This document shows, piece by piece, positions 1,747-4,125 of a stretch of DNA of 4,221 nt. Source of the DNA: a phage. Location of the stretch: the sequence record NC_138367.1. One strand, 5' to 3'. Position numbers and translations under genes: made by a program. The notes beneath the pieces are model-generated. The model searched no databases. It had not been told where the DNA came from and worked only from the letters and a program-made list of their open reading frames with translations. How positions within the stretch are numbered: position 1 is the stretch's first letter; the number at the start of each line of letters is the position of its first letter.

Positions 1747-2337
1747 ACACTGCTCATTGCCGGTGGTGGCTCAGGGTCTAAACCCGATCCGGTTATCATT
1801 CCGGATCCACCGATCGATCCGCCGCCAGGGACAGGTAAATATACTTGTCCTTTCGCAATTTGGTCCCTAGAGGAGGTTTACGAGCCTCCTACTAAGAACC
1901 GACCGTGGCCTATCTATAACGCTATCGAACTCCAGCCTCGCAAGTTTGATGTTGCCCTTAAAGATCTTTTGGGCAATACAAAATGGCGCGACTGGGATTC
2001 ACGGCTTAGTTATACCACGTTTCGCGGTTGCCGTAGCAACGGTTATATTGACCTTGATGCGTCTTATCTTGCTACTGATCAGGCTATGCGTGATCAGAAG
2101 TACGATATTCGCGAAGGCAAGAAACCCGGTGCTTTCGGTAACGTTGAGCGATTCATTTATCTTAAGTCGATAAATGCTTATTGCTCTCTTAGCGATATTG
2201 CGGCCTATCACGCCGATGGTGTGATAGTTGGCTTTTGGCGCGATCCATCTAGTGGTGGTGCCATACCGTTTGACTTCACTAAGTTTGATAAGACTAAATG
2301 TCCTATTCAAGCCGTGATAGTCGTTCCTCGTGCTTAG
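1345..2337 (+). CDS. A1: A1 read-through protein (coat protein with C-terminal extension; minor capsid protein required for infectivity)
   Basis: The coat frame continues through UGA 1744..1746 into ...TLLIAGGGSGSKPDPVIIPDPPIDPPPGTGKYTCPFAIWSLEEVYEPP...AVIVVPRA and ends at tandem stops UAG UAA (2335..2340). Total is 330 sense codons including the read-through codon. The Gly/Pro-rich linker after the coat domain is typical of A1. Confidence 0.85.
1744..1746 (+). other. Leaky UGA stop codon of the coat gene (programmed read-through site, decoded at low frequency by tRNA-Trp)
   Basis: The coat ends in UGA followed by A (UGA-A). The same frame stays open with no stop from 1747 to the UAG at 2335..2337, which I checked codon by codon. 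This is the hallmark of Qbeta-type A1 read-through. Confidence 0.85.
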
Positions 2338-2351: not shown

Positions 2352-2371
2352 ATGCATGTCTAAGACAGCAT
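2352..2371 (+). promoter_or_regulatory. Coat-protein translational operator hairpin at the replicase start (repressor binding site and packaging signal)
   Basis: Seen in sequence: AUGCAUGUCUAAGACAGCAU forms an 8-bp stem with a single bulged A (position 2356, the A of the start codon) and a 3-nt loop UAA (2361..2363). The replicase AUG (2356..2358) lies inside the 5' arm. This matches the known Qbeta operator architecture of 3-nt loop plus bulged A. Confidence 0.8.
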
Positions 2372-4125
2372 CTTCGCATAACTCTCTTAGCGCACAATTG
2401 CGCCGAGCTGCGAACACAAGAATTGAGGTCGAAGGTAACCTCGCACTTTCCATCGCCAACGATCTACTGTTGGCTTATGGTCAATCGCCATTTAACTCCG
2501 AAGCTGAGTGTATTTCACTCAGTCCGAGATTTGACGGGACCCCGGATCACTTTAGGATAAATTATCTTAAAGCCGAGGTCATGTCGAAGTATGACGATTT
2601 CAGCCTAGGTATTGATACCGAAGCTGCTGCCTGGGAAAAGTTCCTGGCAGCAGAGGCTGAATGTGCTTTAACGAACGCTCGTCTCTATAGGCCTGACTAC
2701 AGTGAGGATTTCAATTTCTCACTGGGCGAGTCATGTATTCACATGGCTCGCAGAAAAATAGTCAAGCTAATAGGAGATGCTCCGTCCGTTGAGGGTATGT
2801 TGCGTCACTGCCGATTTTCTGGCGGTGCCACAACAACGAATAACCGTTCGCACGGCCATCCGTCCTTCAAGTTTGCGCTTCCACAAGCGTGTACGCCTCG
2901 GGCTTTGAAATATGTTTTGGCTCTTAGAGCTTCTACACATTTCGATATCAGGGTTTCTGATATTAGCCCTTTTAATAAAGCAGTTACTGTACCTAAGAAC
3001 AGTAAAACCGATCGTTGTATTGCTATCGAACCCGGCTGGAATATGTTTTTTCAACTAGGCATCGGTGGCATCCTACGCGATCGGTTGCGTTGCTGGGGTA
3101 TCGATCTGAACGATCAGACGATAAATCAGCATCGCGCTCACGAAGGCTCCGTTACTAATAATTTAGCAACGGTTGATCTCTCAGCGGCAAGCGATTCTAT
3201 ATCTCTTGCTCTCTGTGAGCTCTTATTGCCCCCAGGTTGGTTTGAGGTTCTTATGGATCTCAGATCACCAAAAGGGCGGTTGCCTGACGGTAGTGTTGTT
3301 ACCTATGAGAAAATATCCTCGATGGGTAACGGATACACATTCGAGCTTGAGTCGCTTATCTTTGCTTCTCTTGCTCGTTCCGTTTGTGAGATACTGGACT
3401 TAGACTCGTCTGAGGTCACTGTTTACGGAGACGATATTATTTTACCGTCCTGTGCAGTCCCTGCCCTTCGGGAAGTTTTTAAGTATGTTGGTTTTACGAC
3501 CAATACTAAAAAGACTTTCTCCGAGGGGCCGTTCAGAGAGTCGTGCGGTAAGCACTACTATTCTGGCGTAGATGTTACTCCCTTTTACATACGTCACCGT
3601 ATAGTGAATCCTACCGATTTAATATTGGTTTTGAATAACCTATATCGGTGGGCCACGATTGATGGCGTATGGGATCCTAGGGCCCATTCCGTATACCTCA
3701 AGTATCGTAAGTTGCTGCCTAAACAGCTGCAACGTAATACTATACCTGATGGTTACGGTGATGGAGCCCTCGTCGGATCGGTCTTGATCAATCCTTTCGC
3801 GAAAAACCGCGGGTGGATCCGGTACGTACCGGTGATCATAGACCACACAAGGGACCGAGAGCGCGTTGAATCGGGGTCGTATCTTTACGACCTCTTTTCG
3901 CGTTGTTTCTCGGAAGGTAACGATGGGTTGCCTTTAAGGGGTCCGTCGAGTTGCGATTCTGTAGATCTATCTGCCATTGATCAACTTATCTGTAGGAGTA
4001 ATCCTACAAAGATAAGTAGATCTACCGGTAAGTTCGATATACAGTATATCGCGTGCGGTAGCCGTGTTCTGGCACCCTACGGGGTTTTCCAGGGCACGAA
4101 GGTTACATCTCTACACGAGGTATAA
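2356..4125 (+). CDS. rep: RNA-dependent RNA polymerase, replicase beta subunit
   Basis: AUG 2356 (MSKTASSHNSLSAQLRRAANTRIEVEG...) to UAA 4123..4125 is 1770 nt = 589 aa. The catalytic YGDD motif is encoded at 3424..3435 (TAC GGA GAC GAT, in ...SSEVTVYGDDIILPS...). Size and sequence match the Qbeta replicase. Confidence 0.93.
   Translation: MSKTASSHNSLSAQLRRAANTRIEVEGNLALSIANDLLLAYGQSPFNSEAECISLSPRFDGTPDHFRINYLKAEVMSKYDDFSLGIDTEAAAWEKFLAAEAECALTNARLYRPDYSEDFNFSLGESCIHMARRKIVKLIGDAPSVEGMLRHCRFSGGATTTNNRSHGHPSFKFALPQACTPRALKYVLALRASTHFDIRVSDISPFNKAVTVPKNSKTDRCIAIEPGWNMFFQLGIGGILRDRLRCWGIDLNDQTINQHRAHEGSVTNNLATVDLSAASDSISLALCELLLPPGWFEVLMDLRSPKGRLPDGSVVTYEKISSMGNGYTFELESLIFASLARSVCEILDLDSSEVTVYGDDIILPSCAVPALREVFKYVGFTTNTKKTFSEGPFRESCGKHYYSGVDVTPFYIRHRIVNPTDLILVLNNLYRWATIDGVWDPRAHSVYLKYRKLLPKQLQRNTIPDGYGDGALVGSVLINPFAKNRGWIRYVPVIIDHTRDRERVESGSYLYDLFSRCFSEGNDGLPLRGPSSCDSVDLSAIDQLICRSNPTKISRSTGKFDIQYIACGSRVLAPYGVFQGTKVTSLHEV
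2550..2870 (+). promoter_or_regulatory. Approximate M-site (internal replicase binding region within the 5' part of the replicase gene), placed by positional homology
   Basis: Established knowledge for Qbeta: an internal replicase binding site needed for plus-strand template recognition lies in the replicase gene roughly 1.3-1.6 kb from the 3' end. Coordinates are approximate, transferred from memory, and not demonstrated by this sequence alone. Confidence 0.3.

Follow-up and report, generated by a model that had tools for sequence, protein, structure and literature searches.

A hydrophobic out-of-frame ORF inside the A1 read-through domain of a Qbeta-clade phage is very probably a chance by-product of A1 coding

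Introduction

Does the A1 read-through domain of a Qbeta-type phage hide a small lysis gene? The question is raised by an ORF at positions 1946–2173 of the window, which is the whole stretch of 4,221 nt analyzed here. The ORF lies in the +1 frame relative to coat and A1 (start at 1345), and its product would contain a hydrophobic, TM-like segment. The original prediction considered a hidden membrane-active peptide at this locus and judged chance to be the most likely explanation.

Qbeta lyses its host through A2, which inhibits MurA (PMC7693330, PMC12856241). The original prediction had noted that phages of the Qbeta type already have A2 for lysis. A screen by Chamakura et al. (2020) looked through ssRNA phage genomes for sgl genes embedded in other genes (PMC7693330). 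Their candidates had at least 25 codons (AUG, GUG, or UUG start), a proper Shine–Dalgarno sequence, as well as a TMD predicted by TMHMM, and were tested for growth inhibition or lysis on induction (PMC7693330). Most candidates were inactive; activity in E. coli was seen for 33 of 293, the majority of these 33 being in the +1 frame of rep (PMC7693330). Functional embedded sgl genes were mostly in a +1 frame, and some genomes carried more than one (PMC7693330). A few active genes had no recognizable ribosome-binding site (PMC7693330), so a missing Shine–Dalgarno sequence is not an absolute bar to function.

Qbeta itself provides a precedent. A cryptic +1-frame lysis gene close to where rep begins was described by Nishihara et al. 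(2004, Genes Cells 9:877), as cited in PMC12856241. Its product is reported to lyse cells when it is expressed after a frameshift.

Results

Gene map of the phage genome

The window is a complete Qbeta-clade ssRNA phage genome (Qubevirus durum). Its closest full-length relative was Qbeta strain TW18, a natural plaque-forming isolate, with 95.8% identity in an end-to-end alignment. The identity was about 94.6% with laboratory Qbeta and about 75% with M11 and MX1. Genes were mapped with the ORF list and annotated relatives. The A2 maturation/lysis protein (420 aa) is encoded at 62–1324. The coat gene (1345–1746) ends at a leaky UGA (1744–1746). The A1 read-through protein (coat/A1, frame 0, + strand) extends from 1345 to 2337 with the stop codon UAG at 2335–2337, and frame 0 is the one that truly codes here. 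Its read-through domain (1750–2334, + strand) matched Pfam PF16814 with an E value of 2e-94 (family profile, 315 bits vs a cut-off of 27) and the crystal structures PDB 3RLC/3RLK with an E value of 6e-128. The replicase is encoded from AUG 2356 to 4125; AUG 2356 is the homologue of the Qbeta start, and the long ORF opens at AUG 2347. An Rfam scan of the whole window gave no family at the gathering threshold.

Two strain differences were seen in this map. Upstream of the A2 start (62), an in-frame AUG is located four codons away at position 50, and the ORF list consequently gives 424 aa rather than 420. This AUG is due to an A/G polymorphism (UAUGAGAGG vs UAUAAGAGG) and is common to TW18, GIII_C, FrHibiscus, FrBurgundy, and VK. 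Shine–Dalgarno pairing was absent at AUG 50 (0.0 kcal/mol), and the AGAGGA box serves AUG 62. The other difference is in the Pro-rich A1 linker (1780–1815), which lies at the start of the read-through domain after the leaky UGA and varies in length among strains. Compared with laboratory Qbeta (VI-PD), the window (VII-PD) and FrSangria (VIT-PD) each have one extra codon; the number of extra codons is two in GIII_C and three in FrMerlot, FrHibiscus, and FrBurgundy.

Coordinates and product of the ORF

The ORF at 1946–2173 is on the + strand. It starts with UUG at 1946, has its first AUG at 1949–1951, ends with UAA at 2171–2173, and overlaps A1 codons 201–277. The product is 75 aa from the UUG and 74 aa from AUG 1949, longer than the minimum of 25 codons used for sgl candidates and with start codons of the accepted kinds. 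In A1, the letters of this AUG belong to the codons GAU-GUU (Asp-Val). Upstream, an in-frame UAG (1868–1870, + strand) bounds an open +1 stretch of 100 sense codons (1871–2170). The hydrophobic stretch, GLVIPRFAVAVATVILTLMRLILLLIRLCVIRS, is the +1-frame translation of 2003–2101 (+ strand). The A1 Leu codon CUU at 2005–2007 (+ strand) lies in this region, and its synonymous change to CUG creates UGA at 2006–2008 in the +1 frame. Tryptic peptides within the product include FAVAVATVILTLMR and NPVLSVTLSDSFILSR.

The coordinates and hydrophobic translation quoted in the original prediction matched the letters of the window exactly, and the context that it gave upstream of AUG 1949 (CGCAAGUUUGAUG) was also correct.

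On the other strand, an antisense ORF of 103 codons with a UUG start (1999–2310, − strand) overlaps the ORF. Translation of the minus strand is not known in ssRNA phages.

The hydrophobic segment is TM-like on crude scales

On the crude Kyte–Doolittle scale, the segment of the ORF reached a 19-residue mean of 2.65. This was the strongest hydrophobic peak among the +1 ORFs in the window genome. The approximate Hessa sum for AVAVATVILTLMRLILLLI, a crude value calculated with the Hessa 2005 scale, was about −2.2 kcal/mol. The best 19-mer contained one arginine, and three arginines were present across the whole stretch. On these crude scales the segment was TM-like and scored as insertion-competent; the arginines weakened this character and did not abolish it. 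The earlier statement that the arginines are poor for a TM helix holds only in part, because the segment still scored as insertion-competent. The ORF would probably show the predicted TMD that was required of sgl candidates.

The 74-aa peptide was searched against Pfam, PHROGs, NCBIfam, and PDB sequences, and zero matches were obtained. No similarity to a known lysis-protein family (MS2 L-type) was found in these databases.

A segment of this kind could be a latent proto-gene. Its peptide would be unmade in normal infection and under no selection, would be membrane-toxic or lytic if expressed, and would provide raw material for the de novo evolution of sgl genes. The insertion-competent score on the crude scales is in favor of this reading. 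The activity of 33 of the 293 sgl candidates in E. coli (PMC7693330) and the precedent of the cryptic +1 lysis frame within the Qbeta replicase gene (Nishihara et al. 2004, cited in PMC12856241) point the same way. However, most such candidate ORFs were inactive in Chamakura et al. (PMC7693330), and the three arginines are spread along the hydrophobic stretch. We consider a latent activity of this kind unlikely. This reading is compatible with a chance ORF as far as natural function is concerned and differs only in the latent property.

Codon composition accounts for open, hydrophobic +1 frames

The third codon positions of A1 were 43% U and 14.5% A. Beneath the hydrophobic stretch (2003–2101), the A1 wobble positions were 61% U and 0% A. 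Phe, Leu, Ile, Met, and Val together made up 44% of the +1 frame in A2, 43% in A1, and 36% in rep, compared with 25–30% in frame 0 and 18–23% in the +2 frame. The mean hydropathy of these +1 frames was between +0.25 and +0.69. Over the 330 codons of A1, 12 stops were found in the +1 frame and 33 in the +2 frame, so they were about three times rarer in the +1 frame.

These values suggest how the ORF arose. Qbeta-type genomes favor U-ending codons and shun A-ending ones. The A1 wobble base is the middle base of the +1-frame codon, and codons with a middle U are those of Phe, Leu, Ile, Met, and Val. A hydrophobic +1 translation follows from this, since the A1 wobble positions, which supply the middle bases, are rich in U. 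A +1-frame stop requires U at A1 position 2 and then A or G at the wobble position, so +1 stops are rare and long open stretches are common. AUG 1949 itself arises from the conserved A1 dipeptide Asp-Val spelled GAU-GUU. The peptide as a whole in effect mirrors the preference for NNU codons along a conserved piece of A1, YTTFRGCR(G/S)NGYIDLDA(S/T)YLATDQAMRDQKY.

Two kinds of null genomes were made from the three genes. Codons were permuted within each gene, or synonymous codons were shuffled with the proteins fixed. Among the codon-permuted genomes, 88% contained some +1 ORF with a length of 75 aa or more, and among the synonymously shuffled ones, 84% did. When the length limit was 25 aa and the hydrophobic peak had to match or exceed that of the real ORF, the shares were 20 and 25.5%, respectively; for 75 aa or more and the peak combined, they were 7 and 9%, respectively. 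The length and hydrophobicity of the ORF, taken jointly (7–9% in shuffles), are therefore not trivially common. None of these chance statistics is significant, given that the feature was chosen after the whole genome had been read. The window genome contains 16 +1 ORFs of at least 25 aa; five of them were above the classical Kyte–Doolittle value of 1.6, and 5.0–5.6 were expected from the shuffles. One +1 ORF of the same genome, at 3173–3403, is longer (76 aa).

Other +1 ORFs in the genome

The original prediction had called the locus the only place in the genome where a hidden membrane-active peptide could plausibly sit. This did not hold, because a homologue of the cryptic Qbeta rep-frame lysis ORF is present at 2357–2560 (+ strand, +1 frame of rep). 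Further hydrophobic +1 ORFs also lie at 2912–3058 and 567–731. The frame at 2357–2560 is interrupted by stops in TW18 and FrSangria. At this site, the GAGGUUG of laboratory Qbeta reads GAGGUCG in the window, and an in-frame UUG is located at 2423.

The ORF at 2912–3058 (+ strand, +1 frame of rep) encodes 48 aa, has a 19-residue Kyte–Doolittle mean of 2.33, and starts with an AUG with weak Shine–Dalgarno pairing (−2.5 kcal/mol). The ORF at 567–731 has a mean of 2.06. The ORF at 3173–3403 (+ strand, +1 frame of rep) is Leu-rich, starts with UUG, and is without Shine–Dalgarno pairing. The ORFs at 2912–3058 and 3173–3403 belong to the same composition-driven class.

The ORF lacks Shine–Dalgarno pairing at its start

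Pairing with the 16S 3′ tail was −0.2 kcal/mol at AUG 1949 and +0.1 kcal/mol at UUG 1946. At the real starts it was −5.8 (A2), −3.6 (coat), and −5.8 kcal/mol (rep). Of all AUGs in the genome, 85% match or exceed AUG 1949 in the strength of this pairing. The ORF thus does not have the Shine–Dalgarno sequence required of sgl candidates, and the gap between −0.2 kcal/mol and the −3.6 to −5.8 kcal/mol of real starts puts numbers on what the original prediction had read from the upstream context. In a local fold, AUG 1949 was located in a predicted hairpin stem, with UGAUGUUGCCC paired with GGGCAAUACAA; the bases around the AUG were unpaired with a mean probability of 0.38. No ribosome-profiling data set for cells infected with Qbeta turned up in a literature search.

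Ribosomes might also enter the frame without a start codon. A ribosome translating A1 could shift to +1 within 1871–2000, and the hydrophobic tail would then be joined to a coat–A1 fusion, with a predicted size of about 29 kDa. The +1 frame is indeed open from 1871. However, the coat UGA of Qbeta is read through by a few percent of ribosomes, and only these traverse the A1 region. The frameshift product also shares the missing conservation and synonymous constraint described below. Although the cryptic rep-frame lysis product is reported to depend on a frameshift (PMC12856241), we regard such a fusion as extremely improbable.

The frame is interrupted in relatives

An A1 codon alignment was made with 20 relatives. 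In TW18, an A1-synonymous change from CUU to CUG gives UGA at 2006–2008; the ORF is cut to 20 codons, ahead of the hydrophobic stretch. M11 has +1-frame stops at window positions 2006 (A1 CUG here too), 2069, and 2072, and MX1 has them at 2069 and 2105. Both M11 and MX1 read GAC-GU where the window reads GAU-GU, and the AUG is missing in both. The group IV genomes SP, FI, HB-P24, and NL95 contain one to four stops each within the span. Interruption in close relatives had been named beforehand as a result that would refute a function, and stops were found in TW18, M11, MX1, and the four group IV genomes. The open frame and start codon, which a dual-coding gene should keep across relatives, were not conserved.

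Of 14 distinct Qbeta-clade sequences, with nucleotide identities as low as 87%, 13 had the frame open. Two BR12/VK-like environmental contigs had it open (L022 and L021, of which L023 is a duplicate). A search of viral and metagenome contigs for divergent relatives found no lineage at 75–87% identity, and the conservation test within the clade covers about 13 related genomes. Ten codons are at risk in that a synonymous change produces a +1 stop. All of them are NUU or UUG, and NUU needs a transversion. At fourfold U-ending sites across A1, C occurred as a minority base at 31% of sites, A at 8%, and G at 5%. From the A1-wide U-to-A and U-to-G frequencies, about one stop-creating variant was expected at the ten at-risk codons in the Qbeta clade, and one was observed (TW18). 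Shared ancestry and a transition-biased mutation spectrum explain the persistence of the open frame in the clade; selection is not needed.

One SP-like metagenomic contig (L024, MAVO01000006.1, locus 1501–2081) has an A1 read-through frame that is lost near the middle of the domain, owing to an apparent indel or assembly error.

Synonymous variation is raised over the ORF

Synonymous variation was analyzed in 11 Qbeta-clade strains at codons with an invariant A1 amino acid. Over the ORF span, 47% of the codons were synonymously variable, and the mean pairwise synonymous difference was 0.177. The values for the rest of the read-through domain were 26% and 0.086, and those for the coat part of A1 were 28% and 0.082. 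The A1 synonymous diversity in the ORF span was thus about twice that in the rest of A1, and when reduced variation in the span was tested for one-sidedly, p was 0.999. Adding M11 and MX1 did not change the direction, and raw third-position variability behaved likewise. An overlapping function is expected to depress synonymous change in the host gene, so the raised variation in the span speaks against function. The original prediction had also listed unreduced synonymous variation in A1 over this span as refuting a gene, and the observed difference (0.177 vs 0.082–0.086) goes beyond that. Additional constraint at the RNA level may act on the rest of A1, or the segment 1945–2170 may be unusually free of it.

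The peptide was less conserved than its host. The +1-frame, A1, and nucleotide identities to the window were 0.71, 0.87, and 0.87 for BR12 and 0.53, 0.73, and 0.73 for M11, respectively. The +1-frame amino-acid identity was below the A1 identity in every relative compared, because each wobble change in A1 is a second-position, amino-acid-changing one in the +1 frame. It was at or below the nucleotide identity in all comparisons but that with GIII_C, where the two were essentially tied. Judged as a dual-coding gene, the ORF has neither a host frame with reduced synonymous variation nor a product at least as conserved as neutral change would leave it. Nothing indicates that ribosomes start at AUG 1949, and the pattern of changes is that of a frame treated by evolution as non-coding.

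An adaptive Qbeta mutation also falls in this region. C2011A, which is T222N in A1, increased entry, decreased burst size, and left the latent period approximately unchanged, and its authors credited A1 (PMC12469967). After coordinate conversion, it maps to position 2015 of the window, inside the ORF span, where it changes Pro to Thr in the +1 frame.

These data bear on the possibility that the ORF encodes a second cryptic single-gene lysis protein, a 74-aa peptide made at a low level from AUG 1949, inserted in the inner membrane by its hydrophobic segment, and contributing to lysis alongside A2. Its length of more than 25 codons, its TM-like segment (19-residue Kyte–Doolittle mean of 2.65), and the open frame in most Qbeta-clade strains are what such a gene would have, and embedded +1 sgl genes are common in ssRNA phages, with more than one in some genomes (PMC7693330). 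However, Shine–Dalgarno pairing is absent and the AUG lies within a predicted stem. The truncation in TW18 precedes the hydrophobic segment, and the frame is broken in M11, MX1, and all the group IV phages. The A1 synonymous variation is raised, the +1 identity is below the A1 identity, and the peptide has no family match. The Pro-to-Thr change of C2011A left the latent period approximately unchanged, and its effects were attributed to A1 T222N (PMC12469967). A second lysis protein is very unlikely on this evidence.

Discussion

We conclude that the ORF at 1946–2173 is very probably a non-functional chance ORF, a by-product of encoding the A1 read-through domain. We infer that no peptide is made from it in infected cells. 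Chance had been favored from the outset, and the shuffles, the stops in relatives, the raised synonymous variation, and the absent Shine–Dalgarno pairing bear this out.

Several known systems resemble the ORF. Like MS2 L and the embedded Sgls, it is small and out of frame with a hydrophobic segment; its 75 codons equal the length of MS2 L, and it is in the favored +1 frame. It differs from them in that it has no Shine–Dalgarno sequence, is not conserved, and shows no dual-coding constraint. Its location inside A1, rather than at the coat–rep junction or in rep, is also different, and its phage already has a proven lysis protein. That protein, A2, serves lysis in the same phage, but it is a 420-aa soluble virion protein (62–1324) unrelated to the ORF in sequence, location, and mechanism.

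The cryptic lysis frame in Qbeta rep is similar in being embedded in the +1 frame of an essential gene, outside the normal four-protein repertoire, and broken in some strains. It differs in that its lysis has been reported (as cited in PMC12856241) and in that the ORF at 1946–2173 lies in A1 and is far more hydrophobic. From alternative-frame ORFs produced by codon bias, the ORF was indistinguishable: a U-rich, A-poor wobble gives a stop-poor, hydrophobic +1 frame.

A young origin might be considered. The ORF could encode a Qbeta-clade-specific lysis or membrane-active peptide, made at a very low level through a Shine–Dalgarno-independent start or a rare +1 frameshift, and providing some A2-independent lysis. 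If true, it could explain the release of particles by A2 lysis-defective mutants, and TW18 would be a natural knock-out. We give this version very little credence. If it were real, a fifth Qbeta protein would be remarkable, as few genomes in biology have been studied as much as that of Qbeta. Another route to lysis would, in that case, also matter for the de novo evolution of lysis genes in ssRNA phages.

With the ORF read as a chance product, the finding concerns ssRNA phage genomes rich in U at third codon positions, in which the +1 frame by itself has few stops and a hydrophobic translation. Out-of-frame TM-like ORFs are therefore an expected background, about five per genome here. Such ORFs should be judged by conservation and synonymous-site tests rather than by their looks.
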